DNA of 61,670 nt, filler included, from Sphacelaria rigidula (taxonomy: Eukaryota), in assembly GCA_964200075.2 (NCBI GenBank). It is 6 parts of 6 records of this genome, joined end to end, with 100 filler letters (N's around TTAATTAATTAA, not from the genome) between each part and the next. Parts side by side here need not be neighbours in the genome. Positions count along the whole stretch, not along the records: positions 10,297 to 20,492 come from CAXNAA020006954.1; 5 more parts are not named here. One strand, written 5' to 3'. The notes beneath the pieces were generated by a model. The model was not told where the DNA came from, made no database searches, and saw only the letters and a program-made list of their open reading frames with translations. Shown here piece after piece: positions 4,570 to 61,259 of the stretch. A program made the position numbers and the translations under genes. Each line of letters opens with the position of its first letter. Position 1 is the first letter of the stretch.

Positions 4570-6470
4570 TCATTTGTGGGTGTTCTGTTGCGTGAGGCCC
4601 GGGCAGCACACGGAACTGGGGTGAAGGGGGAGGAGGTGCTTGATGGGTATTGTTGGGTTTGCGAGGCGCGCACAGCACAAGGACAGGATGGGAAGACGGC
4701 TGCGAGGTGGCGGGGACGGCGCGTCCTCAGTTTTGCATACCCTAGCTCGCTGACCATTGATCGCGGGCCCGTAAAAGCGTGTGTGGGGTAGGGTGGATTT
4801 TGGAGAAAACAAAACTCGTAAGCTCGTGGACACTCTTTTCTCTCTGTCAAAATCTTGGGAGTATATGTGAATTGATACAGAACGAAAAGGTCCCGGACGT
4901 CGTGCGATTGAGCGACCTGATTGATTGTGAAGGTGTTGTTGAACTGTACTGTCTATCCCCGTAAATATGCTGCAAACTACCGTTCGTTGACCAGGCTGAA
5001 ACTCGCCGGGTGTTTATGATGAATGGGATCGGTTTCGATATTACCGGGTTGTGCCAAGCGTAGGCTTTGTGCTATAAGATGGGAGATGGTCCATTTGTTA
5101 CAGTACACTTTTGTGCTCAGCAAGAGCAGTCTCCGTAAGGCAATGCCCTCGTATACCCTAGAAGACTGTGACTTCGATGAGGGAAAATATCAGTTGCTAT
5201 GGTGATGAATGAGATGACGGTGAGGTCGCACACGATGTACCGTATCATAGAACCAGGTGAAGAATATCATGAACCCAGGTGAAGAATGCCCGCAGGTTGG
5301 AGCTCGGAAATGGTACAAGTTATAACTGGCCATTATCATTCTAGTGATCATAATGGCAATGGTTGTATGAAATCTGGATGATGGTTTCGAACCATTATTC
5401 ATCGTTACCGGCTTTACAAGCAGTTACCGGCTACGTATGCAACGTACAGCCCGTGAAAATTGGCCCAAATCTCACGTATTTATCAGCTCTAGTGAAACCA
5501 AATCGCATAGAAACGTGCCTCAGGCACGGCGTCTCCAGGGGAGGGGGGGGGGCTTTTTGGCTCGCGGCTGCGCCGCTCGATGACCAAACCATTATGTTCC
5601 ATTTAAGTGGTTCGTGAGTGCTCTACGCGTAACCATTCAACTGGTCGATGGTTCGACAAACCATTTCCGAGCTCTATCGCAGGTCGAGTCTCACACTTTG
5701 TATCTTACGCGAGAATATACCTCCAACCCTCTCGCTAGACTGGGCGATAGCTTCACATTCGATTTGGGTATGAACAAGACGACAGTCCCATGCGATACGA
5801 GAGTATTTTATAAATAATATTTACTTTTCACCAGGCATGGTGTGGCCGTTAATCTTCGACGACATTTTTTTCACGTCACACAACATATTGGAGGATGGTC
5901 TAATCTCACGCGAGGCATGGCTCAAGGACACCATTTGATCCCTCGACGCACTGCCCTTGGGCCGCACTGCACGCATACGATCTTCGTTATTCCTGCTTTG
6001 AGAGGTCAGAGGCATTCTGGAAGAGTACAGCGTGAGATATATCGGAAGTCCCTCCTCGATACTGGAGAGAGTCGGTTGCGCGCGTGGTGCAATCGGTGGG
6101 TGTCAATTTTCAGGTACTGTCAGGAAAATATATAGACGTCGCGCGCAAAATTCTGAAGAGGGGACTGCGTTCTACCGCAGCAATCTTGGGAGCATCTATA
6201 CCCCCGGTCGGTCGATTCCACTGCGCTGAAGAGGAAGTCGAAGGCCATAAATTGCAGCAAGGCAACGATTATCGCGGCAAGTCATATTCTCCGGGCCGTG
6301 TACCGTCTCGTCTACAAACAGCCCGTCTCAGCAGCTTTGAGTTTCAATTTTTTAAACTTGAGACGGCACGTGTCTTTTTATCTTGGTTCTAGTGTTTCTA
6401 CTACTAATATCAGTACTTTATAGTACTGTACAGGAACGGACCGGGGGGTGGTGGGGTTAGCGCTCAGCTC

Positions 6471-10296: not shown

Positions 10297-12240
10297 CGTC
10301 CCGGCTTTGTAGGGATGCGAGGTCAATGGTCTGATGACTATGGCAAGCATGATCATGAGTACACCCCCGTGGGGTCGGCGTCGGTTGGCGACGACGTTGC
10401 AAAACACGCCACCCACTGCGTACGCTAGGCAACCAAGTTACCATTCGTTCCTTGCGCTCGCGTCTTTTTTTCACGGTAGCCATGATGGTGGTCGAGCTAG
10501 ATCATGTTGTGCGGGGTGGTAGAACCTCAATTCCGCGCAAAGGGGATGATCATACTACCTAGTGCTGATACGGAGAGACACTCATGAGGCGGTGTGGAAC
10601 CCGTGGCTGTATCTGGAAGTGGCGAGAGCAGACAACGAAACGACTTATTCAATCAGGACGCTTCGGACCGAACAGCCTCAGCAGGTTACAGCTCACCCTT
10701 CATGCGACTCGCCGAGCACACCACGGCGCTTCGCGCGTGGTGATTGATTGCAAGCCTGGTCTTCGAAAACCCGGCATGCTCCGTCCCGGCTTTGTGGGAA
10801 TGCGAGGTCAACGTTGTTATGGCTATGGCATGCATGATCATGAGTACCCCCCCCCCCCGTTCCCCCCCCGTTCGTCTTGCCATCCATGAGACATTGTGTA
10901 CCCTGTGGTTGTCGCTGGAAGTGACGATACCAGACAAAGAGGCAAATTATTGGAGGCTGTCATCCATTTGCAAGATGATCGTTACGCTTCGGGCCGAGAA
11001 ATCTTAGCAAGATGCAGGTCATCCCTCATGTGACTCGCCGAACACATCACGGCGCTTTGCCCTTGGTGATTGATCACGAGCCTGGTCCGACGAAAACCCG
11101 GCGCGCTCCGTCCCGGCTTTGCAGGGATCTGAGGTCATGATTCAATGACTGGCATGCCAGATCATGACTGCACCCCTCATCCTGACAATGAGTGTGCGGA
11201 AACTTGAAACTGTCGGCTTGAGAGGAGGCTGCGTTGTGAACCAACCGATTGGCCTGACCATGGGCATAGCAGCCACACTATCGTCCTGCCAGGGGGTACA
11301 AGATACCCACCATACAGTACGGATACTCTCGTGTGTTCTTTCCCTTTTTTTCCCGACATCGGAGAAGAACATGCGGGTGTCGGCCTCAGGAGGCTCTCGA
11401 ATTTTCTAATGGCCTCCTGCACTTTGCTCACCACCCTCGTTTGCATCGGTTTTTACTGTTTTGATGGTGTTTAACCCTCGACCCCCACCGGAGAAAGGGG
11501 ATGGTCGTGCTACGCGGTGTTTGAATGGTGAGACACCCATGAGGCAGCGTAACCCGTGACTGTTTCTGAAAGTGGTGATGCCAGAAAATGAAGAAGCTCA
11601 TTGCGGGCTGTCATCCATCGGTAAGATAATCAGTACGCTTGGGGTCGAGCGATCCTAGCAGGATGCAACTCACCCTTCATGCGACTCGCCGAACACACCA
11701 CGGCGCTTCGTGCTTGGTGATTGATTGCGAGCCTGGTCCGGCTGAAACCCCGACGTGCTCCGTCCCGGCTCTGTAGGGATGCGAGGTCAACGGTCTTCTG
11801 AATACGGCATACACTATCATGAGTACACCTCCCCTCTACTCCGGCTGCCATCTTTTTGCAGGATAGTACGCTTGGGGCTGAACAATCTTGGCAGAATGCA
11901 GCTCAAGCTCAATGCGACTTACCGCACACATCGCGGTGCTTCGCGCTTCGTGATTGCGAGCTTGGTCCGGCGAAAGCCCGGCGTGCTCCGTCTCATCTTT
12001 GTAGAGACGCGAGGTTAATGGTCTAAATGACTACGGGATGCAGAATAACCATTATACACTCCCCCCCGCCATGCGCCGTCTTGCTCCGTCTCGAAACGAA
12101 TGCGTGGTCAACGGTCAAACGACTAAGGCAAGCAACAAATGAGTACGCCCCCCCCTCCCCCCCGCCCCGTCATGCAGCATCAATGGTCACATGACTACGG
12201 CATGCCAGATCATGAGTACACCCCCGCCCCCCCGCTCCCT
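10297..12240 (+). mobile_element. Head-to-tail cluster of about 7 copies of the poly-C-tailed repeat family
   Basis: Copies at about 10297-10369, 10371-10870 (full length), 10885-11178, 11482-11836, 11858-12070, 12083-12168 and 12180-12240. They share a 3' block (CTCCGTCCCGGCTTTGTAGGGATGCGAGGTCAA...ATGAGTAC or a variant) followed by a C-run and differ in 5' start. Confidence 0.85.
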
Positions 12241-12326
12241 TCTCCCCTCATCCATCCCTCCCCCTCCATCAAAAACGAAAGAGAGCTTCCTGACAAAAGA
12301 ACTTGTGATCTTGTCTGTGTGCGCAG

Positions 12327-14168
12327 GTGGTTGAATCCTGGTCGGAGCCGATAGACGCGCCCATGAACATGTTTATTGTGTCTATTCCTACCGTGCTGGA
12401 CCCGAATCTGGCTCCCGAGGGCAAACACCTGGTGCATATCTACACGGCCGGAAACGAACCGTACGCCCTTTGGGAAGGCTTGAAGCGCGGTTCTCCGGAG
12501 TATGAGGTATATAGTCAACATACATGAATACTAAACCTTTCATATTTTGAAAGCTGCCCGGTAAGCAGTATTTCTGAAAAGCTTGGTGCAGAGAGTATGA
12601 GGTGAACAGAAAAATGTTACGTACTCAACCCCAGAGCATTCATTAAAAATAAATCCATGTTTTCCTTGCGACGTATTTCGTTTGAAGCCATCCGGCAGTG
12701 GTGTGCCGTTTTTTTTTTTCCTGGGGATATTCCCTCCTTTTCTCCATTCGGCGGTTTTTTTTTGCTTTACTTCCAGCATCGTGTTTTTTTCTTCTCCTGG
12801 TGATTTTCTTGTTTTTATTTCTTTTCTCCCCCTTTGCTTTCTCTGTTTTCCCGCTGCAGTGTGCTTTGATCTCTCTCCAACTCTCCTTGTAGACGACCTT
12901 TGCCTCCGCTCGAGGCTCCTTGAGCGAGCGTTTCTCTTCACTCGACGTGCGCACGTCGATGTCGTGACCACGGATGGCGTATCATTCAATGTGTCATACC
13001 TCATTGATTTACTCTATCCTGCGTCGCATACCCACCAACTCGCGCTGCAGTCCATTCATCGCATGGGCGTCGTTATTGAGCAGGAAAGCGGCAACAATCT
13101 CCCATTTTTCGGCTCAATATCTTACTCTTCCATGCACGAAACATGCCTTTCCCCTCACTTCCCCACATACATTGTTTCATTTATTTTCCTTGTATATGAG
13201 TCATTTATCGCTCTTGTTTGTTGCTGAGTTTCCAATACGTGAGTTTGAATCTTATTGGTTGTACGTGAAGGCGGACGGACCCCACCCTTCAGCAGTCAAG
13301 CAGCAGTCGAGAAATATATGTAATATATAAACATATATTTATTTATTTATATTGCGATATGCTCCACTTTTTTTCTTTTCGTTTCTGATTTTTCCCAGTC
13401 GATCCACGTGCAATCACTTTGCGCCCAAGCTTGTCAGATAAGGCTCAGTTTTCGGGGAGATGTGCACAGGTCCTTGCCAATTCGTACCTTCACCACATAT
13501 TAAGTCTGTACAACATCTGGAGGAAAGATGGGTTCTTGGTTGATGCGTTGAGATCACGGTGTCGTACCGAGGAACGGGAGGGGTTGCAAGCGTGAAGGGA
13601 ACAAAAAGAACATCAACAGACACGCACATATGACAAAAAATTGTTCAGAACACGTAAATTACTCACCACAGTTCTTTCATTGAAATCATGAGGAGACAAC
13701 GCGTTATCGTGTAAGGGTTGACCAATCGAACCCACAAAATGTTTCTCAACACTGTATAAGTATGATGGGTGACAAATCCAAGGGTCGGACGAATGAATGA
13801 TTCGTCCGGAAACTACTTGATCCTAGTGTATTCGATTCGTACAATACAAATCCTGGGGCTTTGTTTTCAGCGTTGTAACACAGGTACGCGCAGCCCAGGC
13901 AAACGGCGCCAAAATTGCGTGGGGACTACCTTTTTGGCCAGTGGGCAACGTTTTTCTCCCTTTTGAGCAATCAGGCCTAAGAAATCGTGGGTTTGGTGAT
14001 CTGAACCGGCGATGATTCGTTCGAGCCATGAAAATATCACAAGTGATAGGCAGCTCTACACAGCCTAATTCGGAGCGCAATAGCATGATGCATGGTTTGA
14101 GTTGAGTTGCAAAAACGGCCTCCCATGGTGAACCGCGTCATCCCGCTTCTTGGTGAAAGACACACACA

Positions 14169-17200: not shown

Positions 17201-18894
17201 GGACGGTACAATCAGAGAATGGCCGTTCCAACACGATTTGATACAATTCAACACGAAACACACCAATACATTCGGAAGTATTTAATCAGCGATTTGACAT
17301 GGAGTGCATTGTTGAAAAACTCTCTGCTAGGCGAGTTGGTCTTGTATACGGTAGTATCACCATTTTGATGTCATGGCCTTTTCTATATTTTTTTTGCTGC
17401 TGAGAATATCTTTGTCCCCCCTCACCAGTTGAAGCGTGTGGTGGTAAGCGTTGTTCATCACGCTGGATTTGAAGGTTCTGCATGCCGAGGCGCTCACGCC
17501 CAGTTGACTTGGATAATGTAGACAAGTTTTGATCTGTGAAAACAACGACAACAGTATAAATGCTTTGGGAGGGTGCTATATTACAGTAATTTTTTTTTTG
17601 CAAACGTTGCCCGCAGGATTGTGAAACTCTCTTGAAGTTCGGATGAATTGTCTCGGCACCTCCAGTACGCAGTGTTGCTAGGGTGAGCCCGGGCAAGCGA
17701 AGTTTGTCTCGGTCGATCCGGGTATGTGGTTGATAGCTCCACAATGGGGAGTGTATGTGTGTGCGTGTATGTGTCATGAAAAAAAAAAAACGTTCTTGTT
17801 TTGGCCCACCACAAAGGGGGAGGGCGCATAGTAATTGCACAATCAGAGCAGGTACCTCTTGTCCGCTACATACCCAACCATGCGGCGATGCCGTTCTTAT
17901 ACCATATTGTGTACCTTTTCCTGTGACGTATTTGCACTAGCCGCGGATCAGTCGTCATTGAAAACCCGACAAGAATCACCCGTCATTCGGGTAAGGGTGT
18001 GAATGCAGAAAACAGTTACATTCGTTGATTTCTGAAACCCGAAAACGCCTTTGGTACTGCGAGGATGTTTGGGGTCGTTTCATATAAATTGTAACCCAAG
18101 GTCATGTCACACCACATGAACAACAAATACGATCTTCCAAGCAACCCCCCCCCCCCCCCAAAAAAAACTTTGTTCACGCTCAAATTAAAATGCAACTTGA
18201 TCACACTGCACACATGAAGTACCCACCACACACACACACACATACATAGCGTGCAACTCATCCACCCGAACAAATCTGATGCACGTACTGTCCGACGGCC
18301 TCCATAGCGAAAGCTGCAAACGTTAACTGACGACATGCCATCCAGGATCGTACGGACCCGGGTGGAGGGCTGGAGAGGCCGAATTCCCCGGCTGCGTAAC
18401 ACCGCTCAAGGGTCTTCTGCACTGCGGAGACTCCACGCTGCCGGGTCTTGGTCTCCCGGCCGTCGCGGCTAGCGGTATGAACGCGGCGAGGTACGACTCC
18501 GGCGCGCGCCTTGCGAGGCATATCAATGTTTTCTACGATTACCAACGCAAAAATACGGTATGCTCAGATAATGGACAAAATGTCGAAGTCTTGGTGGCAG
18601 AAAATAGTAACACCTACTTGATATTTGTTCAAGCCACGTGATCACCTCGTCCGAGCCGCCCACCGGCCTTGCCCGTGTCGTGCTCATCGCTTATTTGTGT
18701 ATGCGGCGTGTTTATATCTGCGCTTTGTGCGTTCGTATATCTCTGTGTCCTGCGCTTGCTGCTGTGCCCCGCCATGCTTGGGCCTGGTGTGCTTGGCTTG
18801 CTGCAGTACGTTAACGCCGGTATGGAAGCAGCTGCGACTACTTTGGGAGATGCAAAGCAAAGGACTCATAGACAGCAAGTTCAACGACTTTTGA
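12327..18894 (+). CDS. Carotenoid isomerase-like (CRTISO/CrtH/phytoene-desaturase superfamily) FAD oxidoreductase, last 4 exons, 5'-partial
   Basis: join(<12327-12506,16567-16699,18346-18490,18807-18894), in frame, GT..AG. Family motifs: VSIPTVLDPNLAPEGKHLVHIY, SPLTH..RRFRGSYGP, TPLKGLLHCGDSTLPGLGLPAVAASG. Confidence 0.9.
14161..14212. repeat. (CA)n microsatellite in a CRTISO-like intron
   Basis: About 26 CA units read directly, one interruption. Confidence 0.95.
15958..16045 (+). mobile_element. Degenerate tRNA-like (SINE) head
   Basis: A-box-like GGTGTAAGTGG and B-box-like GGTTGGAATC at tRNA-like spacing; no intact cloverleaf. Confidence 0.35.
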
Positions 18895-19176: not shown

Positions 19177-20278
19177 CGTTGGTAGATAAAGACTCACATA
19201 ATAGGCGGCGGGCAGCGGGAGTGAGCCTCTTGGGGATATTGTTGTGTGTATCCCTGCACAAGGGATCAGAGGCTGACTCCACCGAGGTTAGTCGGATCCA
19301 GGGTCGGAAGGTTGGGTAGCAGAAGTACAGCAGTACTTCAGAGCAGAAGACAATGGTTCGATGTTGTAAACAAGGCGCTTGCGGCCAACACAAACAAATA
19401 AAAAAGGCAGACACCGGCTGCTGATTGCCCCGGTAGGGTTGTGCTCCTAGAGGTGATAAGGAACCCATACAAACCAGGAAGGTAAACAAGGAGTGAGCTC
19501 GAACACCGAGCACGGCCCATCAACATCTGCCTTACAGACGTTGGCATATTCGTCCGCAGACGTTACATGCCAACCGACACATATTATACCGACTGCACTT
19601 TATAGCCACACTACAACAATGAGCACTGCATGAACAATGCTACTATACTTTGACTCCATAGAGGAATGTGTAGACAATTCCGTAACACTCCCCTTCGATG
19701 AAAGTTGCCTGTGAAGTGCGATACCCATTGTTAAATGAACACCAACATATTTCTTACTAGTTATGCGCATAAACAGAGTTGCCAAATGTTCATCCTCCAA
19801 AGTTCTTGATCCGGTCGACAAGGAAACGAAAACGATGCTTGCTCAAAAACTTGGTTCCGATGTCGGCGAGTTGATGCTCCGTGGGAATATAATGAATGGT
19901 TATTTTCCCCTCCTTGGCCATCTCTCTGATGTAGAAGAAACGTAGAGCGATGTACTCTGTGCGAGAACTGTACGCCTCATTGCCGATGACACGAAGAGTG
20001 GCCGTATTATCGATTTGTAACGACACTTGTCCGAACTGCTGTCCGAAACTCAACTCGGTCATCATGTTTAAGCAAAACACAGCTGCCTTCATTGTCAGAG
20101 CTGCAGCCACCAGTTTTGCCTCCATGGTTGACATCGTTGTCAGGCTCTGGATTCCTGACTTGAACCTGACGGGCGCCTTACACATCATCATGAGATAAGC
20201 TGAGGTCGATTTACCGTTGTCAGGGTTGTTACCCCAGTTTGCATCCGAAAACGCAGTGAGCTTAAACCCTCCATACAT
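19177..20278 (-). mobile_element. 3' remnant of a Ty1/Copia LTR retrotransposon: RNase H, polypurine tract and 3' LTR
   Basis: ORF 19790-20278 has Copia RNase H motifs (AFSDANWGNNPDNGKSTS, STMEA, IDN, IALRFFYIRE, QLADIGTK). PPT GAAGGGGAG is followed by TGTTACG at 19687; the putative LTR runs to about 19177 (ends CCAACG). Confidence 0.85.
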
Positions 20279-20334
20279 ACGTCGGACGAGTCATCACTCG
20301 TCGAGACGAGTGCACTCGTGGATGTTTTTCGAAA

Positions 20335-20592: not shown

Positions 20593-20944
20593 GGAAAGCA
20601 CTGTTTTGGGCTTGAGCCTCATCTCGAAGTTAAACCTCAATTCGCACAATTTGTTGTTCATTCTTATTTTGCCTTAAGTATTCCATTGCGATTCTTCCAA
20701 CTCAACTTCAAAACACAATAATTCCTAAAAATGAGCTGAGGAATTGAGTTAATTAACCCCTTGAACACGGGGATAGGTCACCCACCTGCTGAATCGGCAT
20801 AAATATTCACTTGAAAAAAGTATGCATAATAATCCAGATGGACTACCCGCACCACGGTCTAAGGTTTAACCCTTAGACGGCGAGAAGAGTAGGTCACCTG
20901 TTGAATCGGCATCAATAGTAATTCCACTTGAAAAAGTATGCGTT

Positions 20945-21378
20945 ATCCAGGTGGGCTACCCTCCTCGCGGTCTAAAAAAAGGGGTAAGGGGCCACCAAAC
21001 ACAATGCCTATTTTGCACGAAAACGCCCCCAACTAATAATGCAAACAACAACAAGGTCTTGAACCTTGAACATTTAATTTCATTTTGCCCTCTCCATACT
21101 CCATAATACTTCGTCTACTCTGTTTTTCTGTTTTACGTTTTCTACCTCATATTTTTTCTTCAATCCAGGTGGGCTACCCTCCTCGCGGTCTAAAAAAAGG
21201 GGTAAGGGGCCACCAAAAACAATGCCTATTTTGCACGAAAACGCCCCCAACTAATAATGCAAACAACAGGGTCTTGAACCTTGAACATTTTATTTTCATT
21301 TTGCCCTCTCCATACTCCATAATACTTCGTCTACTCTGTTTTTCTGTTTTACGTTTTCTACCTCATATTTTTTCTTCA
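20945..21378. repeat. Near-perfect direct tandem duplication, about 218-bp unit, 2 copies
   Basis: ATCCAGGTGGGCTACCCTCC...CATATTTTTTCTTCA starts at 20945 and again at 21163. Confidence 0.92.
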
Positions 21379-28400: not shown

Positions 28401-28760
28401 GAAAAAATGAGGTTCAACTCAAAAACAGGACTTTCCCTGACCTAAAGTCATGACAAATGACTTTCATATGGATGACCCCATCCCTCTCGACCTCCCTCAA
28501 ACTATTTCGGGGATTTCTAGCCTTCCATTCCCCCAGAGGATAATATACATGTGCGAAAGTACAATTTTGCCTCGATTTCGGCGTGGAGGAAGGGATGCTT
28601 TTTGGTCCCTAAATCGTGCTTTCGCACACGCCCCTTGCGGGAACGCAAGGCTAGGAATTCGTCGAACTGGTTCAAGGGAGGTCGGGAGGGACGAGGTCCA
28701 TCTGAAAGTCAATCGTTTTGACGTGAGGTCAGGCTACTTTTGGATTGAACCTCATGCTTT
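28401..28760. mobile_element. Degenerate MITE, same family as 30207-30594
   Basis: Left end AAAAAATGAGGTTCAACTCAAAA...TTTCCCTGACCTAAA and inverted right end AGGTCAGG...TTTTGGATTGAACCTCAT match the 30207 element. Confidence 0.7.
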
Positions 28761-30206: not shown

Positions 30207-30594
30207 CAGTGGATTCTCGAAAATGTGGTTGAGAAAAAATGAGGTTCAACTCAAAAGCCGTGCTTTCCCCAACCTAATAACTTCATGATAAATGACAGTC
30301 ATACGGACGACCTCATCCCTCTCGACCTCCGTAAAACTATTTGGCGTTCCCCCAAAGGGTATGTGCGAAAGCGATTTCGGGGTGAACAAAGGACGTTTTC
30401 TGGCTCAAAAATTGTGCTTTCCCACAAACCCTTTGGGGGAACGTACGGCTAGAAATCCACCGAAATATTTTCAGACAGGCCGGGAGGAATGGGGTCATCC
30501 ATATGAAAGTAATCTGTCATGAATTTAGGTCAGGGAAAGCACGGCTTTTGGGCTGAACCTCATTTTTTTCAACCCCATTTGCGAGAATCCACCG
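30207..30594. mobile_element. MITE of about 390 bp with about 110-bp terminal inverted repeats; a third copy starts at about 30748 and is cut by the gap
   Basis: CAGTGGATTCTCGAAAATGTGGTTGAGAAAAAATGAGGTTCAAC... matches the reverse complement of ...GCTGAACCTCATTTTTTTCAACCCCATTTGCGAGAATCCACCG; no coding capacity. Confidence 0.85.
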
Positions 30595-34650: not shown

Positions 34651-35133
34651 ATTTACTCACAAGATTATCCGCTTGTGCAAAGATCTATATTAGAATATTG
34701 CCGAGTTTAACACCAGTGCACATGTACTTGGATGAACTCGGGTACATGAAGGGGCAGATTGATGGTATATCAAAGATACCGGATATTGTATGAGGTACCG
34801 GGTATTGTATCATGACTTAATGTTCGGAATATAAGGGGATCCTAGGTGCATGCGTGAATACGAGCCTCAGTTCATGTTTGTTTTTTTGTTGCACACTGCA
34901 TAATGCATTTTGGGTGAGAGAGCAGCTCGGGTGGAGCTTGCACGGTTGATGTTGGGTGAGTGAAGGATATAAAAAGATTAATGCAAGAAGAGCTACTACA
35001 CATTCCCCTCTGTCCAGAGCACGTCCTCTGAGAGAGGCATTCCTTTTTTCACTACACTGGCGATTTGAACAGGTCGATTGCAACGAGGTAGCTGAGGGAA
35101 GAAAGCAAGTTTCAGATAGTCAAGCAGGTGGTG

Positions 35134-35385
35134 TCTAATACAGTTGAGCAGAACAGCAGCAGAATTCGCGCATTTAGCCAGTTTCAGAGAGTTACGCAGT
35201 TAGCGTATAATACAGCTGAGCGAAACAGCAGCAGAACTCGTGTGTTTAGCCAGTTTCAGAGAGTTACGCAGTTAGCGTCTAATACAGTTGAGCAGAACAG
35301 CAGCAGAATTGGTGCGTTTAGCCAGTTTCAGAGAGTCACGCAGTTAGCGTCTAATACAGTCGAGCAAAAGAGAAGCAGAAATTGC
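35134..35385 (+). repeat. 72-bp tandem repeat, about 3.5 copies, inside the putative LTR
   Basis: Unit TCTAATACAGTTGAGCAGAACAGCAGCAGAATT...GCAGTTAGCG starts at 35134, 35206, 35278 and 35350. Confidence 0.92.
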
Positions 35386-37610: not shown

Positions 37611-38269
37611 GCATCTTGATCAGTGTTTGGCAGATTCATGTGTGTCCCGATCGATGGAGACAACAAGGTAGCGATCACAATGATGGTACATCTAGACGAT
37701 GTTTTTGCCGTAGGGGATGAGGAAGGTGTGGCGGATTTGGTAAGCAACTGAACACAAATGTTCCAGTCCAAAATCTAGGAGAACTGCAGTGGCATTCGTG
37801 TATATATTACGAGAGAGATTTGGAGAGGGGGATCCTCATTGTTTCGCAACAGACTTTTGCATAGGAGTTGGCGGAGGAGTGCAATATATCATGGGGGAAT
37901 AAGATGCCTATGAGTACCAGTGTAAAGCTCGAGAATTCCAGTGAGGATGAGCAGAGCACGACGTTCCCACTCGGGAAATTGGTAGGGCCACTCATGTGGC
38001 CAGCAAACCAGACCAGACTGGACATTTGCAACGTAGTGAGAGCGGTAGCGAGATATTGCGCACCCCCGACTACTGCAGCGCATGCCCCCACTGATACTGT
38101 ATCTCCGGGTCCCTTTGTCGGTGCAACCTCGTCTCATGTGGCGTATTCCCCTACTGAGACGGTGCCTTCGCGTGCTTCTGCCGTCTCGAAGATGTCGGTC
38201 CCAATATGCAACCTTTTGAAGTTGCTTTCGAATTTGTCACATTTGATGCACTGCCCCTCCGCCCGACTT

Positions 38270-38785
38270 GGGGGTGGGGGGTCGGGTGTACTCATGATCT
38301 TGCATGCCATAGTCATCAGACCATCGACCTCGCATCCCTACAAAGCCGAGACGGAGCACGCCGGGTTTTTAGTCAATCACCAAGCGCGAAGCGCCGTGAT
38401 GCGCTCGGCGAGTCGCATGAAGAGTGAGCTGCATGCTGCTGAGATTTGTTCGGCCCGAAGCGTACCATTATAAGTATCTTGCATATGGATTGGTGCCTAC
38501 AATGAGTTGCTTCATTATCTGGTATCGCCACTTCTAGAGACAGCCATAGGTTACACGCTGCCTCATGGATGTATCGCCATCTAAACACTGCGTAGTACGA
38601 TCATCTCCTTTCCGCGGAGTCGGGTTCTCCATCCCACACAATATGATCTAGCTCGACGACCATCATGGTTACCGCAAAAAAAACACAATCGCGCAAAGAA
38701 GGGTAAGCTGGTTGCCTAGCTTACGCAGTGAGTGGCGTGTTAACAGCGTCGTTGCCAAGCGACGCCGACCCTCGAGGGGGGGCGG
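38270..38785 (-). mobile_element. Full-length (about 500 bp) copy of the poly-C-tailed repeat family
   Basis: GGGTGTACTCATGATC...CGACGCCGACCCTCGA with G-rich flanks on both sides; reverse complement of 10371-10860. Confidence 0.85.
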
Positions 38786-41182: not shown

Positions 41183-41282
41183 TTCCCCTGGGCGGGGGGG
41201 GCGCGCTCATTCTCTCTTTTGGGGCCCCCTGCAAGCCCCCGGCCCCACTACGGGCCCCCCCCCCCCCCCCCCCCCCTCCGTG

Positions 41283-41461
41283 TTGAAAGGGATGCATGTT
41301 CAATGGCCAAATGCGTAAGGTAAGGAACAAATGAGTAAGCCCCCCTCCCCCCAAAAGTCGAGTCTGGTCCGGCGGAACCCCGGCGAGCTCCGTCTCGGCT
41401 TTGTAGGGATGCACGGTCAATGATCTAATGACAACGGCATGCAAGATCATGAGTACACCCT
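41283..41461 (+). mobile_element. Two short 5'-truncated copies of the poly-C-tailed family
   Basis: They end in ATGAGTAAGCCCCC (about 41345) and ATGAGTACACCC (41460) and follow a long C-run at about 41254-41276. Confidence 0.75.
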
Positions 41462-41520
41462 GAAATTATCTACTGTTGGCGACGATGTGGTGCGTTCCCG
41501 GGATAATGGCGATAGCGCAG

Positions 41521-44023
41521 GTCGAGAGGGCATCTGTTCAGGCTATCGGTGGAAGAGAAGAAAGGTGTTCTTCGATCGAGCGGGGTGAAGCCGCCGAGGA
41601 AACGCGCCATGTCCGGGGTAGAGATGAAGGACAATCGAGACCTGGAGGACATGTTGCTCCCTTTGATGGATGAAGTGGTAAGTTTCCTTCAGCTCGCGTT
41701 GGAGACCTCCCGAAAAAGGGGAGTTGCCACATGTTGCCGTTGTTTTGTTTTGTTGTTTACATAGTCGGTGCCGCCTTCCGACATGATGCAGAGGAGGTCT
41801 CGTAAGAAAATGATTTCGAGCTGACCTGGTGTGTCGTGTTGGTCAGGTAAGCAATAAAGCTGGTGAAGTAGTTGTTGTCTCACAGTCGATTGCTGGCGAT
41901 GGAAATGACCTATCAAGGGTCACCAGAGGCGCATCATCGGTAGAAGAATCCACCGCGCGCAACGATAACTTTTTATTTTATTTTATAATCTGTAACTTTG
42001 TTGTTGCTGAACCGACGGAGGTATTAACGTGCTGCATACGTCCCCTGAGTCGCACTTGTTCGAGTCATACTCTCGTCATATCGGCACAATGAGAACGAGT
42101 CGGACTCGTGTAGTGTGTACTGCCTGTGATACGGGGAACATGAGGCCGAGTGTCACCCAAATTATCCGATGCCTTATCGTCAAAACTGTGCGGGTCTGAG
42201 TCGAGTCATGCCATCGAATCGTGAAAAATGAGGATCGGCGTGACTCACATCATGGGAATCACATAGGATGATATGGACGGGCATGGCGTGGGGCATGCGA
42301 ATCAAATGGTGGACAAGATGAAGATGAGTCTCACTCGTGTCATACGGGAAAAATGCGCCCATATTCCAGCGAGTTGGGTTCCCACGAAAGTCGGACGTGG
42401 GGGTGTTTGTAGAGAGAATAAAACACAACACTGGTTTGAGAGTAAAATACCGACCACTTGATCTCTTTTTGTTGTGCCGACCCTGTAACCCTCTGAGTTA
42501 CTGCAGATGGACAGCCAACTTTATTCTGAGAGTCCTTTCTCAAGTTAACATGATGCCATTGCAGCAAACCGGCAGACGTGGACTGTGTGTTGCCATCTCA
42601 TCTATTCTGGACGCCAGTCTACACCTTTCGGTATATATGGGCGCATCAGCCGGGGTCACACAGGAGGGAGGTCAACGCAGGGGTTTCCCCCCTGTTTTTT
42701 TATTTTATTTTCGGCCTCTACCTTCCTCCTGCGGTGCTTGCCTTCCTTTTCATCGCGAGAAGGGTTCAGCGGCCCCTTTCCCTCGTTGACCGTGGAGTCG
42801 AAATGTACCCGCGACGCAGTAGTCGCTCTCCACTGTTGTGCATTATGTGAGAAAAAATCCCAGATCGTGTGACTTCACCGATATTCGAATCCAGGTCCCG
42901 ACCGTCAGAAGGGATTTGAGGTGACCAATTTATCCACCGGGGCGACCGGCTCAAAACTATAAAAGAGGTGAAGTGGTGTCAAACAGGTGAATTGGTTCCG
43001 CCGCGTGGGCGTTATATGTGTTATTTGCTTTTCGATCGTGCGATTATGTTCACAGGTCCGACGAGATGTCCTGCTGGCGCGAGCGTGGCGATCACGTGAC
43101 TTCGAAAAGGCAAACGAACTGTGCGCCGGCAAAAGCGAGCGCTACGTCCTCGCGGAGCAAATTCAAACGGTGAGAAGTGAGAAGTGAAGCGATTGATTGA
43201 ACACTCACTTTCTTATTGGATACGCAACGCGTCATTAGTAATACTCGCCAAATACCGTATAGGATAGATATATCCATTCCCATACATCAAAAGCGTTGTT
43301 GCTTGCTTTGACTCAGCTGCCTCTCAAACGCCGCGCAACCCGGGGACGAGCTCATACGTTCGCGACGTGCACGCCGTTTTGTTTTTTACTATACACTGAA
43401 TGTACGGGGGGTCGGTTTATGTGGTGAATATGGTGCCTCTAAGACCTCCAACAGCTCGGGGATGCAACTCGTCCCCCTCCCCCTCCTCACTCCTACATGG
43501 CGAGACACCTGTGAGGCAGTGTGTAACCCCTGGCTGTCTCTGGAAGTGATGCTTCCAGAAGACGACGCGACTCATTCGAGGCTGTCATCCATACGCAAGA
43601 TGATCGGCACACTTCGGGCCGAACAATCTCAGCAGGATGCAGCCCACCCTTCATGCGACTCGCTGAACACACCACGGCGCTTCGCGCTTGGTGATTGATT
43701 GCAAGCCTGATCCGGCGAAAACCCGGCGTCCTCCGCCCCGGCTTTGTAGGGATGCGAGGTCAAGGGGCTTTTGAGTACGGCATGCAAGCTCATGAGTATA
43801 CCCTTCCTCGCCCCTTTTCTATGGTTGCCTCTTTTGCGTGGTTCGACAGGCTCTACAAGATCGAGATGAGGAGTTGGTCACGATTCTCAGGGAACGCATG
43901 GAGATACTGGACAGCTGCAAGATGGACCTCACACAGGATGAGGGATCGTACCAGAAGGATTTGGACGCTGATGAGTGGTACATTGCCAATAGGCGTCGTG
44001 CCATGTCGAAAAAGAAGGAGTAG
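41521..44023 (+). CDS. 3' end (3 exons) of a protein of unknown function, 5'-partial
   Basis: join(<41521-41677,43056-43169,43850-44023), in frame, with strong sites (GTAAGT, GTGAGA; CACAG, GACAG). Helical charged sequence ending DLTQDEGSYQKDLDADEWYIANRRRAMSKKKE*. Confidence 0.78.
42533..42949 (-). mobile_element. tRNA-derived SINE (about 420 bp) in an intron; related fragment at about 46097-46155
   Basis: Minus-strand head GGTCGCCCCGGTGGATAAATTGG (A-box-like) ... GGATTCGAATATC (B-box-like). The body segment ATCTATT..GACGCCAGTCT.CACCTTTCGGTATAT recurs near 46100. Confidence 0.65.
43497..43815 (+). mobile_element. 5'-truncated copy of the poly-C-tailed family, ending about 35-50 nt before a host 3' splice site
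   Basis: Aligns to 10575-10850; preceded by CCCCCTCCCCCTCC and ends CATGAGTATACCC. Confidence 0.85.
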
Positions 44024-45190: not shown

Positions 45191-48130
45191 TATCCGATGT
45201 ATATTCATGAGTATCCCAGATGATTCTTGTTTACCACACTCATGCAGTTCGCACGAACTCATGCATGTGTTCATGTGGGTACTCATTCCTCACCTCCACC
45301 CCCTATAGCGCCTCCGCCGCGGCCTTCGCGCAAAAGCCACCTGTACTGTCTACCAAGTTAAATTCTGTGGTTGGCTTATCCCCGTCGTGGCCGCTAACTT
45401 GTCGTAAGTAAAAGATGGGATTATAATTCCAAGTTCACGCTTCACGAAGTAAATGTGATTTCTGCTCCGGAAAAAAAATCGACTGACCGGTTTTTTGCGA
45501 CTCGATTTTTGCGACTTGATTTTGCGATTTTTTTTCTTCATTTCCCACTCTAAAACCCCTATTGATTTCGATTTTTTGGGGAGAATTTTTCAAACAGAAA
45601 AAAACGCATCCTGCTTCAAGGGGCACCTGGACACACAGCAGTTGCTGTTGCCAATCTAGTATTATCCTTCAAATCAAAATCTTGAGTGAGAACGCCCAGC
45701 GTGCAGCTGCTTGACGCGACCACTGCGTTCTGCCACGGAACCTTCCCCACGTACCCGACAAGGGGGCAACATCCCCGTACAGAGAGAAGCAATGCTAGCG
45801 GATCCTACGTCCTGACGGTCTGCCAGTCTAGCAGCCGGCAAGGTGGGTATGGTAGTATTCTTCTAGCGATCTCAACTTACAGTGCACTGGAGCACAGTTG
45901 GCAGGTGAATATTTCGACGATTGCCTCACCTGCAGTTTGCCAAGATGTTGCGGATTTTTTCACGATCTCACTGAGTAACATTACATGCGGAAATGTACCA
46001 GACCCTGCATTATATGTGGAAATGTATCAGACGCTGGACAAAGATTTCTACAGTCAGCACGGTCACGATGATGTTGAAAGCATACTGCGCACAGTGTGTC
46101 CCATCTATTCGAGACGCCAGTCTCCACCTTTCGGTATATGTGGACGCACCAGCCGCGGCTGAGTTACCATACAGCTTTCCCCAAGATACAGGGGGCCATT
46201 TCAACGGCGGAGGCGGCCTTTCACTCCTGCGTGCGCCACCGGGACAAACACACGCTGTAGCTGCAACGCGAACAGCTTTACAAAATGTGGCGTGGCGATA
46301 TGGCGCGTAGTGAGGGGTGATATCCCGTGTACACGTTGGCTACAGGTACAAGCGGCTGCGTTCATGTTGTGGCGAACTGCATAGGACAGCGCGAAATCAA
46401 TGCGGGACAGGGATAGGCTAAGGGTGTGACGTCCTGCGGCGTGCTTTGTCACCCTGCACCCCGCCGCTGTGCAGTGCGAGCAAGTACCGCCGACGGCGTC
46501 ACGCTGCGGTTGGTACGCAGTGTACGCAATGTTGAACACAGCAGCAAGCAGCATATTTTATGTACGAATACGGATGTGTGTTCTAAGACCGATGCGCGCA
46601 CACACAGCAACTACTATCGCCATTATTCGTCGATCAGGGGGGTACCCCCCTCCTCTCCTACGGCCCCAGAATGAGGTTTGGGCGACCTGGGGGGTGGTGC
46701 CGGCATTTCCCGATATGGGGCCCCTCGGCCCAGCGTGCAGCTGCTTGACGCTTGACGCTGTTTCCTGTCTGCCCGAGAAACAGCAGTTTGCAACTTGTAG
46801 TCTATGGCATACCGGGAAGCAAGTACGTGTACTCGAAGACAGGCATGATGATGGCTGGGACTAGTGCGGGACGACCTATTAATAGCGGGAATTTGCCGGG
46901 AAACGGCTCGCGTCTCAGCGCCGGTCTGCGGGGGGCTGTGAGTGTAGGGCGACGGCGATAACACAAACACGGTTCATGGTCCAATACAACTCTACGCTTC
47001 CGTGCAACGACACATCCCCATACCCCGGGTGCACGCGGCACACCTTCATTTTAAAGCCACTTCTAACAAGGGTCAGCCGAGACCACTCCGGTTTCACCGC
47101 CGCAATCCAAGACCGCAACGTCACAAACACCGAAATAAATTAAAGTTGGAAGCGCCCTGGGCACAGGACAATATATTCATATGAGAATGCGACGATCGAC
47201 CGATCGAATCAATGAACTAATTCATTAACACGTCGGGATATTGAATCAGAACAACTCACACCAATCACCTATTATTAGGTATATATAGTGAAAAAAAGTA
47301 GCTTGCGGCATGTTGCGACACGCTAAACCCATCTGTTGGATACCATCCTGACCAACATCCCCCTCTCAAAACCCGGTAATATCGCCCCGTACTCGTAAGC
47401 CGGCAGCATCCTGCGGTATATTCTAGCAGTGCATGAACGCGGAACCAAGTTAAAAGCACTCAGCGCTCAGCAACGTTGTACGGTGTGCGTCTTGGATCTA
47501 TCGCAGATACTCGACACCCCCCCCCCCCCCCCAATTTTGGATGGTGATCCCCACGTACAATCAGTACTCCCATCTGTAGTACTTTGAAGAAGAAACCGAA
47601 CAACGCTATCGACATATTCCGGTGTTGACCGTGCACAACGTTGCCCCTCGGAACGTACTGCCAATCCCGTCGTTGAAACGAACACGCCAACAACTACAAA
47701 CGCTCCGACGTCGGCATGAATAATCTTGATGACCAAAACTCTAGCAACGGATCAGAAACATAACAAAGGTGACGGCGTGTCCGATGATGCGCATGCAATA
47801 CATCCGCGACTGTGAAGGACAATGCTACTAAAACTAGAGCAGCGCGCCCGACGTCCTGAGGTGCGCACCGCAAGCACCACCCCACCTAGTACAGGCATAC
47901 GATGTATCGACAACGACACCCACGACCCCCAATAAATAGCACACCCTTGCTGATCGCACGTCTAGTTGGGCTTATCCTAGTTGGAACATGATACATGTAT
48001 CTTCTGTACTACGGGACACCTCAACACATGTTCGCACGTTCATACACGGCACTGCATTCTACAAAACCGCCACTCACCACCGTACATAAATCACCGAAAT
48101 CCCGAGACAACACACGCAACATGCAACCCA

Positions 48131-48450
48131 CCATTTCCACAGCACCGCCGATAGTGTACATGTCAACCGGAACGCATTATCGGTTGTCCCCCGATCAGAT
48201 TACTCCGTCTCGAAAGGGATGCGAGGTCAAAGGTCACACGACAAAGGCAAGCAAAAAATGCGTACCCCCCCCCGCCCCAGCCCCGCACCCCCCCATTTCC
48301 ATAGCACCGGTGATACCGTACATACCAACCGATACGCATTATCGGTTGTCACCCGATCAGATTACTCCGTCTCGAAAGGGATACATGATCAACGGTCAAA
48401 CGACTGAGGCAAGAAAAAAATGTGTACCCCCTCCCCGGCCCTCGGCCCCC
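48131..48450 (+). repeat. Two tandem units of about 162 bp ending in a diverged version of the poly-C family 3' end (subfamily B)
   Basis: Units start at 48131 and 48293. Both contain ACGCATTATCGGTTGTC.CCCGATCAGATTACTCCGTCTCGAAAGGGAT and end ATG(C/T)GTACCCCC; similar to 12083-12168. Confidence 0.85.
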
Positions 48451-48949
48451 CCGATCAGAGCACAGCCGACGCTCAACTCCCTTAACCTCCAGGTGTCAAT
48501 TTCTTGTTAATGCACATGCACTGCGGAGCTCCGGTAACCTGGTTTTTTCATGTACCGGTACTTTTGCAATTCTCCTGCATTAAACACACTTGGTAGTTTG
48601 CAGCCAAAGGACCCCAAGTATGTCTACCTGTTGCATCGAGCTTGTGCTCGCTTGAAAATTAATACCAAGCATTCAGGGTGTCTAACTTGGGGGCGCTCGA
48701 GGTGCAAGATATCGTGGCAACGCCGATCGCTTCCTTCGCTGGTCGCGACATGATTGATGCTCTGTGAGAAAAGCATAGCTCGGGGGTGCTCGCGTCTTTC
48801 CCAAACAATGCGACACTCTTTCCAAATATGACACACGGCCTTGTACTAACAAACAGCAAACAGTATGGAGAATCACTGTTTTACATAGAATGGCAAAAAT
48901 AGAAAAAGAGCTGGTCAAAAGCCTGAACAGTCATGGCCACTACCCACTA

Positions 48950-51299: not shown

Positions 51300-51377
51300 G
51301 AGGGGTGTACTCATGACCATGCATGCCATAGTCATCAGACCATTGACCTCGCATCCCTACAATACCGGGACGGAAGA
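51300..51377 (-). mobile_element. 3' end of a poly-C family copy, cut by the gap
   Basis: GGGGTGTACTCATGACCATGCATGCCATAGTCATCAGACCATTGACCTCGCATCCCTAC. Confidence 0.85.
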
Positions 51378-56689: not shown

Positions 56690-57175
56690 CTAGGAGCTAC
56701 GAAGTACCCCCGCCTTCATATCGGCCGGCGAAGAGGTCCTGTATGCCCAGTGGTCACGACCGTCCGCAGGCAATGGCCACCCCGTCATGTCCCAAAGTGT
56801 CCCAAAAGAAGCCCATGATGCTCGTGCTGGAAGCCGCTCCCTCCCCATCTCGCTCGCTTCGAGCGCTGCGGCTTCCGAGCTTTGGACAGGCCTTTCTCTC
56901 CCCTCACTGACCGTGCCCACGCCGGGTCCCGTAGCCACCACACACCCGAACCCGGCGGTCGCCATCGTCGCAGATTTCCCCCCGCTCCCGTGCAACGTGC
57001 CCTTTGCGCGTCGTTTGGGTTCTCCACCGCGCACAATATGATCTAGCTCGACCATCCTCATCGCTACGGCAACGAAAAAAACAAGCAAATAATAAGAAAC
57101 GGTAACCTGGTTGCTTAGCTTACGGAGCGAGCGGTGTGTGTTACAGCGTCGCTGCCAACCGACGCCGACCCTCGA
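56690..57175 (-). mobile_element. 5' end of the poly-C family joined to a different, longer internal sequence (candidate long/parental form)
   Basis: About 56998-57175 matches the first 170-180 nt of the 10371 and 38785 copies up to CGCAAAGGG, then diverges into a 123-codon ORF (57061-56690). Confidence 0.65.
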
Positions 57176-57799
57176 AAGGGAGGGGGGAGCTACCGGGGGG
57201 GGAAGTGGCGGGGGACGAAACAGCAGCAGTGGCGTCAGGCGCGAGTGTTGATGGCGGCGGGCCGCATCCACTAGCCCGGCGCTCGAAATCACTGACGGTA
57301 TCAGGCGGGTGGGGGGGCAGGAGCGGCGATGCCGCTAATGGTGGCACCTGCGGCGGGCGGAGGTATCGACCGCAGAGGTCTAGCAAGGGCGGCCCCGCGG
57401 ACGTATTTTGCGCCGGTGACGGGCGGGCGATCAAGCGGGGCGGCGCCGGCGTTGGACTCCGGGTGGGTCCACGATCATATCTTGCCGCAGTGACAGACAT
57501 CGAGAGGGGGGGAACAGTGGTGGCAGGAGAACAACATGCACAAAGTGTGGTGCTCCTCCACCCTTCTACTCGTGGGTCGCCACATATCATCTTTCGTCGT
57601 GGCGTCATGGCAGTGAATCTAATCGGAATATTCACAGCGCAGCTGCCCCAGCTGCCCCCGGCATCAGTAGGGGAGACATGTCCGCAGTCCGCTTCATCAT
57701 CCGCTCCGGGAGGTTGTCGGGAAACCCTTGAAGAAGTGGCTTGTGACTTCCATCGACACTGATCAGTGGCGGGTTGTACTCCTGGCGATGTCATCCCGG

Positions 57800-59660: not shown

Positions 59661-61259
59661 ACGTGACAGCTTGCCCCGCGTAACACTGGCCGTGAGTATG
59701 TGCTGTAGTACGGGGAAACATGACATGTCCCATATTTACTGCTTGCGCCAAATTTTGACCAGGTGCTCAAGCGTTCAGAACCGTCTCCCGACTTCAGGCG
59801 CCTGGCCGAAATTTAGGGACCTTGAAAAACTTTGGGGGTCACTTGTGTTCAAGATACTCGTCATTTTATTCGAAAGAAGTGCAGTGTAATTCTTTTTCCA
59901 CAACATGGAGGCGGTATTTTGGAAGGTTAGGTGTCAAGACAATCCGCACCTCGTTTGTAATGACGCCGAAACTTGGAGAGGGTGTAGATTGGTAATACAG
60001 CAAGGTATCACAGTCACAGCTGCAGCTGCGCAAGGCGCTGAGGGCCCGGCCAGGTTTGAAACGGCGGATACCAGCAACACCAATGATCTTTTCTTGTCAA
60101 CAATTGCTGTCTAATGACGATTATAGTGGACACGGTATTAGTCGGACACGCAGGAGGCAACGGATCCTGCTGGCCTCGTCGTAAAATCTCGCCTAGTTAT
60201 GGATAAACACTTGAAGAAATCCGGCAAAGAATCATCGTTTAGGCCCCGTTATATATCTGCGGGTTGTGGGCTGAACATTCCCGATCCAAGTCGCTCGACA
60301 GGTCAAGGTTAAGCTCCTCCCTCGCAACGAGTGGGTTCTGCCACGGACCCTTGCCAGCATACCCGGCAAGCGAGCAACGTCCCCTACAGACAGTAGCACA
60401 ACTTTCGGGCCCGGCGTACTGACAGTCTGGCAGCCAGCAAGGCGGTTGTGGTGGTTATCTTTTAAAGGTTTCAACTGACGGTACAGCAGCAGGGGGATTG
60501 CATGTGAATTTTTCGGTGATTGTCCCACTTCCACTTCGCCCATGTGTTCCGGACTTTTTTACGATATAACCGCGCCGTCCGCCCCCCCAAGCAACGTGAG
60601 GATACCCTCCAAAGAATAACATACGTGCACAAGGGGCTGTCCCGCACAAATGAGCCCGACGGAAGTGGTTCGTCTACGGTGCAGAGGTTAACGATGCATA
60701 CGATTGGGTCACTGCGGCGAAAAACATGGGCGAATGGCATACTGGAGTCGGAAAGGAGCGGAAGAGTTTGAGGACACGTGGCGACGCGCGGACAAACGAG
60801 AATCAGACCACCGTCACAAACGAGAGGCTGCTGCATCGAGAGCCGCTAATCGAAGACTCCTGTCTGCTCATATCGTCTGTTGATCATGTCTTTAGTCGAT
60901 GGCTCTGCGTCGCCCACTGGTGTGTGTCTGTATCTACTCTGCTGCCCCGAATCCCTCGGGTTTTTCCTTCTTTTGTTCATGTTCAATATTTTATATTTTT
61001 TGCTCTTTTATTCCCTCTTCTTTTCCTTTTTTGTTTTAGATTGGCAACTTCTTTCTGCACTTTGCTTTTGTTGACTTTTATTCATTTTTTTATTTCTAGC
61101 GGCTGTGTTATCATACAGCTTCGCTCAAGATACAGGCAACCATGATAACAGCGCAGGCAGCCCTTGACGGTTCGGACGAATAAAATCGTGATTCGACTCG
61201 TGTTTAACATTGGGACGAATCGTACGATTCGTACACAAGTTGTGATTTGTACATGATTT

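Follow-up and report, generated by a model that had tools for sequence, protein, structure and literature searches.

A very high-copy, C-tailed family of short elements in the brown alga Sphacelaria rigidula, probably retroposed at C/G tracts

Brown-algal genomes differ in size, from ~0.2 Gb to over 1 Gb, and the content that fills the large ones is, to our knowledge, poorly described. The genome of Sphacelaria rigidula is large, since the contigs of each of the four public runs that contain the region studied here total 0.5-0.9 thousand million letters. Here, we analyze a window of 61,670 nucleotides from this species (assembly GCA_964200075.2; six pieces of ~10.2 kb, with artificial N spacers between them). 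The window carries a family of short elements that have a common 3' end followed by a run of C, lose sequence from the 5' side, and stack upon one another. The family is probably a very high-copy, short, non-coding and non-autonomous retroposon that inserts by target-primed reverse transcription (TPRT) at C/G tracts.

Some short and long interspersed nuclear elements (SINEs and LINEs) form pairs with stringent recognition, in which the two partners have a structured 3' tail in common. The family here is SINE-like, with no recognisable head of the RNA polymerase III (pol III) type. Its likeness to such pairs lies in having several short families built on one 3' module with conserved stem arms. 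It differs from them in three ways. A strict SINE has a pol III-derived head (tRNA, 7SL, 5S or snRNA), and none is present here; instead of poly(A) or a short microsatellite, the tail here is a homopolymer of C; and about four fifths of the copies here are without a head. The Zepp LINEs offer another comparison, since these are said, from the work of Higashiyama et al. in 1997, to insert into one another's poly(A) tails. Both systems have 5'-truncated copies in one orientation that appear to land in earlier copies, so that the element would make its own target. Zepp, of course, is L1-like and autonomous, a LINE that ends in poly(A) and keeps to one cluster per chromosome, whereas the family here is non-coding, C-tailed and dispersed. 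The Zepp clusters of Chlorella and Coccomyxa are described as nested (PMC3446292).

In Ectocarpus, according to the main text of PMC12477816, the most abundant family is RTEX-N1_Ec32, a non-autonomous element of ~600 bp that has its 3' end in common with RTE-X LINEs and whose 5' origin is obscure. It resembles the family here in being brown-algal, short (~600 against ~500 bp), non-coding, and the most abundant single family of its own genome. It is also often 5'-truncated and has no pol III head, and its dependence on an autonomous element is deduced from the common 3' end. The units here (157-500 nt) answer to that type, being short, non-coding, high in copy number and 5'-truncated. The comparison is one of descriptions only, and the main text mentions neither a C-run tail nor a C-tract target for RTEX-N1_Ec32. 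The Ectocarpus family has more than 6,000 copies, against an order of 10^5 here, ~30 times higher as judged from summed depth. The same text reports CRE LINEs and Chlamys Penelope-like elements (PLEs) in Ectocarpus, mostly as short fragments; Chlamys makes up 0.43% of the genome, with 3 families and 4,782 copies of which only 27 are intact (PMC12477816, Table 1).

The Chlamys PLEs of green algae and other groups are described as targeting (CA)n and (C)n repeats for insertion, and their target-site duplications (TSDs) as not discernible (PMC8557442). Like the family here, they insert at (C)n, are frequently 5'-truncated, form head-to-tail partial tandems, usually have no hammerhead, and reach high copy numbers. 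They differ in being 3.3-8.2 kb long and in encoding a GIY-YIG nuclease and a reverse transcriptase (RT), whereas the units here are non-coding and of 157-500 nt. They also often have an inverted 5'-truncated copy alongside; none is seen beside the 14 window copies or among the run-contig joints listed, and the tandem neighbours here are dissimilar. The part of PMC8557442 that deals with these elements describes no short non-autonomous derivative.

The original prediction, that the family cannot be assigned to a described one, holds at the level of sequence, with two described kinds standing close to it, the RTE-X-dependent short elements and the Chlamys PLEs. The family resembles LINE- or PLE-dependent short elements, and what is unusual in it is the homopolymer-C tail or target and the very high copy number. 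In the literature consulted on brown-algal transposable elements, PLEs, RTEX, Zepp and Euglena, no C-tailed short element of brown algae is described; the supplements of PMC12477816 (transposable-element library notes) may contain one. Among the literature matches listed, the phrase "poly c tail" was not found in connection with non-LTR retrotransposons (LTR, long terminal repeat).

The window holds 14 copies and one head-only fragment, on four of its six pieces, in agreement with an earlier count of about 15 copies on four contigs. Using the copy at 10363-10858 as query, blastn gave 12 further matches in the window, and nhmmer gave 14 (E 3.7e-128 to 0.011) with a profile built from four of the window copies themselves. 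Copy lengths range from ~46 to ~500 bp, as expected from the variable 5' starts that had been proposed. At least two subfamilies exist, A (~500 bp) and B (157 bp), whose bodies are unrelated and which have a 3' module of ~75 nt in common. The copies and the sequences between and beside them are as follows.

10297..10369 (+): copy a, a 3' fragment, 66 nt or longer, cut off where the piece begins; ends ATCATGAGTAC plus ACCCCCG (nhmmer 10297-10367)
10370..10872 (+): copy b, full-length A-type (~480 nt); tail C12 GTT C8 GTT (nhmmer 10403-10857)
10873..11179 (+): copy c, 5'-truncated A-type, with the variant end GATCATGACTGCACCCC (nhmmer 10881-11178)
11180..11469 (no strand): spacer within the array, unlike the family; right limit uncertain (11470-11493)
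11470..11842 (+): copy d, 5'-truncated A-type; tail ACCTCCCCTCTACTCC (nhmmer 11444-11836)
11843..12067 (+): copy e, 5'-truncated A-type; end degenerate, tail C7 (nhmmer 11843-12065)
12068..12171 (+): copy f, a 3' module of the B type, 5'-truncated; tail C8 T C7 G C4 (nhmmer 12076-12154; 83% to 48200-48289)
12172..12268 (+): copy g, the last 48 nt of an A-type copy, with a long C-rich tail (nhmmer 12179-12224)
38270..38775 (-): full-length A-type copy; tail ACCCGACCCCCCACCCCC (nhmmer 38278-38742(-)); the reference for contig mapping
38776..38911 (-): C-rich tract, preceded by the end of a third relative of the 3' module, a more distant one, GATTAC...CAACGGTC...TCATGAGGTAAT; its likeness to the B module was judged by eye
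41255..41352 (+): C22 tract followed by a B-type 3' fragment of 62 nt, tail C6 T C6 (nhmmer 41284-41345)
41359..41461 (+): A-type 3' fragment of 103 nt, with a short tail ACCCT
43497..43825 (+): 5'-truncated A-type copy (~310 nt), C-rich on both sides (nhmmer 43441-43809)
48123..48294 (+): B-type unit 1 (~157 nt); 5' end CCATTTCCAC, tail C9 G C4 AG C4 GCA C7 (nhmmer 48201-48273)
48295..48452 (+): B-type unit 2; 5' end as in unit 1 (85% alike), C-rich tail (nhmmer 48363-48436)
51300..51377 (-): A-type 3' fragment, cut off where the piece ends; tail ACCCCTCG (nhmmer 51300-51376(-))
57000..57187 (-): head-only fragment covering element positions ~10-182, with C-runs before it; the remainder is absent or replaced

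The common 3' end is the most constant feature of the family. Allowing at most one mismatch, the end motif ATCATGAGTAC occurs eight times in the window against 1.0 expected, a number that none of 100 shuffles reached; seven of these occurrences are copy ends, and the eighth, at 21803, belongs to no copy. In each of the 14 copies the terminal hexamer and an A or G are followed at once by CCC or more, and most tails are runs of 4-12 C broken by a single G, T or A. No copy has a run of A as its tail, which sets the family apart from poly(A)-tailed retroposons of the L1 and Zepp type. On the 5' side, the flank is C-rich on the element's own strand in 11 of the 12 copies where it can be read, and in six or seven of these cases the C-rich flank is the tail of a preceding copy. 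The bias toward (C)n that is characteristic of Chlamys PLEs is therefore found here at 3' ends, at 5' flanks and, as described below, genome-wide. An earlier claim that most copies have C-rich sequence on both sides is confirmed by these counts, as is the claim of a shared 3' end plus C-run.

Long C/G runs are in excess throughout the window. Runs of seven or more number 25 against 4.2 expected under a first-order model, and runs of ten or more number six against 0.02. Nine of the 25 are tails of copies, three immediately precede copies, and 13 are unattached, including C15 at 18145, C16 at 47517, C11 at 40873 and G10 at 5543. The unattached tracts may be unused targets, or the tails of elements that have escaped recognition.

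At the other end, the A-type unit has a discrete beginning. Three copies, at 10370, 38775(-) and 57187(-), start with (T)CGAGGGTCGGCG and have a C-run directly before them; because they start at one point directly after a C-run, the ~500-nt unit has a real 5' end. For the copy at 38270-38775, the C-tract in front is the tail of a preceding element, since the third relative of the module lies just upstream. The B subfamily is represented by the two tandem units at 48123-48452, with one 5' end between them, and by fragments of 62 nt (at 41284) and 79 nt (at 12076).

Within the 3' module, two small hairpins can be drawn. The first has arms, CTCCGTCYC/GGGATGCGAG, that A and B share, and a loop that is GGCTTTGTA in one and GAAA in the other; the arms of the second, GGTC/GACT, are likewise the same, with loops TGAT and AAAC. 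MAFFT misaligns the loops of A and B, and the hairpins were thus compared without a formal count of pairs. Arms that are kept while loops differ are compatible with a structured RNA recognition site, a pattern that fits such a site and does not prove it.

It had also been proposed that the family is without terminal inverted repeats, long terminal repeats, a poly(A) tail or a tRNA head. This is upheld: the tails are C-runs, the only inverted pair in the array is of 14 nt, ARAGORN finds no tRNA gene in the window, and no Rfam family reaches its gathering score anywhere in it. Over 10297-12300, Rfam gives five chance-level matches only (E 1.8-8.6), none of them in the head and none a hammerhead. 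An origin from a small RNA with a pol III-type head was considered and rejected on the ARAGORN and Rfam results. An open reading frame (ORF) across the unit (P0026) has no relatives among proteins of 187-2000 amino acids, which is weak evidence.

The same features are seen genome-wide. The contigs of four public runs (X1, X2, X4 and X6) were mapped, at a likeness of 80% or above, on the stretch 37900-39200, where the solitary full-length copy stands between its flanks.

X1: 65,542 pieces mapped; 1,054 contigs with loose ends at 38284
X2: 38,838 pieces mapped; 798 contigs with loose ends at 38284
X4: 52,163 pieces mapped; 1,060 contigs with loose ends at 38284
X6: 3,718 pieces mapped; 169 contigs with loose ends at 38284

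Most mapped pieces are 90-95% alike to the copy at 38270-38775. In X1, the summed depth is ~81 in the flank, 1.59e7 in the 3' bin (38296-38339), then 1.0e7 and 0.76e7, falling to 2.4-4.3e6 in the middle bins and 2.8-3.5e6 in the head bins. Divided by flank depth in X1, X2 and X4, this gives ~2x10^5 single-copy equivalents for the 3' end and ~3.5-4.5x10^4 for the head, figures that hold as orders of magnitude only, summed depth not being copy number. The ratio of 3' end to head is 4.5-5.7 in these three DNA-type runs. Truncation is therefore not symmetric, and the 5' truncation with a fixed 3' end that had been proposed from the window extends to the genome. The 3' boundary is sharp, and the loose-end consensus at 38284 is 14-18 G on the plus strand, that is, C on the element strand. 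The third relative of the 3' module is also repeated, with a summed depth ~500-1,000 times that of the flank (bins 38824-38911).

The run X6, guessed to be RNA, has a 3' end 14-18 times deeper than its head, against 4.5-5.7 in the DNA-type runs, a difference whose reading is limited by library type. As the RNA nature of X6 is a guess, its 3,718 mapped pieces say nothing certain on expression. A search of public metagenome, genome and viral contig collections with a pattern of the 3' module that fits five of the 14 window copies returned no stretches.

Copies of this family are frequently stacked. Seven copies were predicted to lie in one orientation in the array of the piece that starts at 10297, and seven are indeed found in (+) at 10297-12260; the array is broken, however, by ~280-310 nt unlike the family. 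This spacer (~11180-11470) includes a T-rich stretch, and could be original intron or an unrecognised variant head. Over their last 70 nt, adjacent members of the array are 88, 78, 82, 76, 75 and 74% alike, while copy a is 94% alike to copy ends on two other pieces, at 38288(-) and 51307(-). Because neighbours are no more alike than copies on separate pieces, the stack is not the product of local duplication. In the run contigs, the 15 joints listed (of 615) comprise seven that are head-to-tail, leading back to 38276-38335, and eight internal skips, with no change of strand. The head-to-tail joints listed start at 38324, 38352, 38369, 38534 and 38741, and the letters between them are C-runs or very short extra 3' fragments. 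No inverted partner adjoins any of the 14 window copies, and none is present among the joints listed. The stacks fit two modes of growth, independent insertions into tails already present, and a single event in which the template is switched from one RNA to a different one. Directly after the 103-nt copy at 41359-41461 lies GTTGGCGACGA (41470-41490), which is present also near the start of the full-length head; this may be what is left of a copy that followed, or chance.

How might such a family arise? A unit of ~500 nt (A) or 157 nt (B) would be transcribed, and its ~75-nt 3' module, with two small stem-loops possible, would be bound by an RT encoded elsewhere in the genome. The enzyme would nick a C/G homopolymer tract, or use a break in one. 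The G-run of the nicked strand could then anneal to the C-rich RNA 3' end, priming the synthesis of cDNA, which is TPRT. Synthesis would often stop early, which would yield the 5' truncations. Each insertion would leave a C-run at its 3' side, and that C-run would be a new target; on this proposal, later copies land in earlier tails, giving stacks in one orientation, because every insertion supplies the next site. The C-run may be either a tail borne by the RNA or merely the (C)n target.

As to the enzyme, an RTE-X-type LINE is slightly favoured over a Chlamys PLE as the partner, by analogy with Ectocarpus and by the sharing of one module between subfamilies. The partner may instead be a Chlamys PLE, which documented targeting of (C)n would favour, and the C-runs would then be target, not tail. 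Retained introns, a Penelope-like trait that the original prediction had brought into the discussion, have no bearing on this family.

If the proposal is right, a retroposon primed at C homopolymers, rather than at poly(A), would be unusual among elements that make their own targets. The family has apparently supplied copies of the order of 10^5 to one brown-algal species, and these are found within other repeats and in introns close to splice sites. Through it one can ask which RT, LINE or Penelope-like, recognises (C)n, and it could account for the surplus of long C/G tracts here. For annotation, the 3' module is a simple handle for masking, and libraries based on Ectocarpus may miss the repeat.

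The claim of a retroposon primed at G/C tracts stands in part. Every structural prediction that could be tested was borne out, namely a fixed 3' end, graded 5' truncation, a C-run at the 3' end in ~800-1,060 contigs per DNA run, 5' C-tracts on the same strand, stacks of unlike neighbours, and two bodies on one 3' module. What has not been seen is an RT gene, a TSD or an empty site, and several results weigh against the retroposon. Indels peculiar to the reference copy make the depth profile uneven. No empty site was seen, the 3' junction at 38278 being filled in all four runs. In folding energy, eight 3' modules did no better than shuffles (z -1.7 to +1.75), and no compensatory changes were found in the hairpins of the module, whose arms are merely kept. 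The B unit at 48123 has no C-run on its 5' side. In a test of 12 copies for TSDs, the likeness of a copy's own 5' and 3' flanks never rose above that of mismatched pairs, and any duplication would be masked, since the flanks are C-rich. As to the enzyme, Pfam recognised no family at E 0.01 or below, and hence no RT or endonuclease, among 39 of the window's 189 ORFs of at least 90 amino acids. Among the 39 are the ORFs on the minus strand that lie downstream of the head-only fragment at 57000, as well as those upstream of orphan C-tracts. One of the scans, with the limit relaxed to E 0.1, yielded three chance-level rows only (DUF4532, DUF4462 and Focadhesin), and a scan of the window for the RT motif [YF]xDD gave three matches, none of them supported. 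Among the same 39 ORFs there is no LINE, and sharing of the 3' module is seen in the window only between the non-coding A and B.

Two copies, at 38270 and at 43497, appeared by eye to have duplications of 13-18 nt. These candidate TSDs were rejected, as they failed the mismatched-pair control: in these two best-looking cases, 5 of 11 and 10 of 11 cross pairs score at least as high.

The retroposon outline can be kept while its details are changed. The enzyme might be a Chlamys-type PLE, with its GIY-YIG nuclease and telomerase-related RT, and the flanking C-runs would then be the two halves of a split target. This version, which is nested within the retroposon reading, is possible, and we hold it as a minority opinion. 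It draws on the (C)n and (CA)n insertion, 5' truncation, partial tandems, usual lack of a hammerhead and indiscernible TSDs of these elements (PMC8557442), on their occurrence in Ectocarpus, a brown alga (PMC12477816), and on the finding here of C-runs on both sides with neither a hammerhead nor a provable TSD. However, the inverted 5'-truncated partner is missing beside the 14 copies and among the joints listed (15 of 615), and tandem neighbours are not the near-identical pairs that pseudo-LTRs from one insertion event would be. The C-run is, moreover, constant on the 3' side (14 of 14) and not on the 5' side (11 of 12), and the 39 ORFs scanned include no PLE protein, that is, none with GIY-YIG, the CxC motif and an RT with IFD. 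A more elaborate form, which we consider doubtful, would have the family be a SINE-like parasite of the RT of a Chlamys PLE, its irregular tails produced by telomerase-like stuttering on a short C/G template; a self-seeding (C)n loop would then have led to ~10^5 copies, several per cent of the genome, and the excess of C/G tracts. A change of another sort concerns the stacks, which might be made in single events, the RT jumping in series between element RNAs, each time onto the C-tail of the next. We judge this unlikely as the general explanation. It would account for stack members that are all in one orientation, for junctions that hold only C-runs, and for very short units of 46-80 nt between longer ones; unlike neighbours fit it too, because different source RNAs would serve. 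Template switching would still need TPRT, of course, and orphan long C-tracts show that targets exist with no copy attached, while no result is directly against it.

Other readings would replace the short retroposon altogether. The copies could be mere 3' ends (untranslated regions) of a long autonomous LINE or PLE, with the 500-bp unit reflecting a common point of truncation. That most copies are 3' fragments and that no pol III-type head is present would agree with this. We find it very improbable, however, as three window copies begin at one base after a C-run, run contigs join the end of a preceding copy plus its C-run directly to the head (the joints at 38741), the head bins are as deep as the middle bins, and the two B units have a discrete 5' end of their own. 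The copies could also belong to a rolling-circle, HUH-type DNA transposon, Helitron- or Replitron-like, with one precise and one variable end, insertion in a set orientation beside a target motif, and tandem arrays made by bypass of the end. Helitrons are marked by 5'-TC, 3'-CTRR, a hairpin ~10-20 nt upstream and insertion between A and T. The unit here, (T)CGAGGG...GAGTAC(A) between C-runs, has neither the 5'-TC nor the 3'-CTRR and is not inserted between A and T. Replitrons have short direct repeats at or near both termini (PMC10288648); here the first and last 12 nt have only GAG in common, with no 6-nt repeat in 12-15 nt. Such a transposon would explain one fixed and one variable end, stacking that depends on orientation, the lack of a provable TSD, and short palindromes at the fixed end (GCATGC, TCATGA, GTAC), and both Helitrons (PMC12477816) and Replitrons (PMC10288648) are present in brown algae. 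A homopolymer of variable length at the fixed end, together with graded loss, is, however, the signature of priming at a tail and not of strand transfer, and there is very little chance that an HUH-type transposon is the source.

The array at 10297-12260 has a gene for its neighbour. An exon at 12327-12506 (+) encodes 60 residues of a prolycopene-isomerase-like protein of the amine-oxidase family, whose best named relatives are all brown-algal (Scytosiphon 90%, Pylaiella 88%, Ectocarpus 87%, Sargassum 83%, Discosporangium 77%), other algae being lower. A euglenid or dinoflagellate source, suggested by a faint likeness of the element's head to spliced-leader motifs, was rejected on this match. 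The array lies within the intron just upstream of this exon and in the same orientation, ending ~60 nt before the AG of the 3' splice site.

Elsewhere in the window, ORFs at 37865-38278 (+) and 19793-20290 (-) are presumably pieces of a Ty1/copia polyprotein (RT and RNase H regions); Pfam gave no hit. An Atlas look-up of the two gave a weak lead to the Ty1/copia RT (0.87-0.88; RVT_2 in 11% of members). The full-length copy at 38270-38775 lies inside or beside this copia-like repeat, the depth of which is ~30 times that of the flank (bins 37988-38075). Long C/G homopolymers of 10-22 nt are found at 18145-18159, 47517-47532, 40873-40883, 5543-5552 and 41255-41276; four of the five are unattached, and the tract at 18145 is followed by A8.

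The window also contains a tandem duplication of 219 bp at 20945-21378, in perfect register and 96.8% identical, and an array at 35104-35380 with a unit of ~72 bp repeated about four times at 84-87% identity. Dispersed repeats that are unrelated to the C-tailed family, 69-87% identical, pair 28401-28755 with 30233-30568, 45715-45966 with 60323-60565, 20783-20975 with 39660-39833, and 42596-42655 with 46099-46158.

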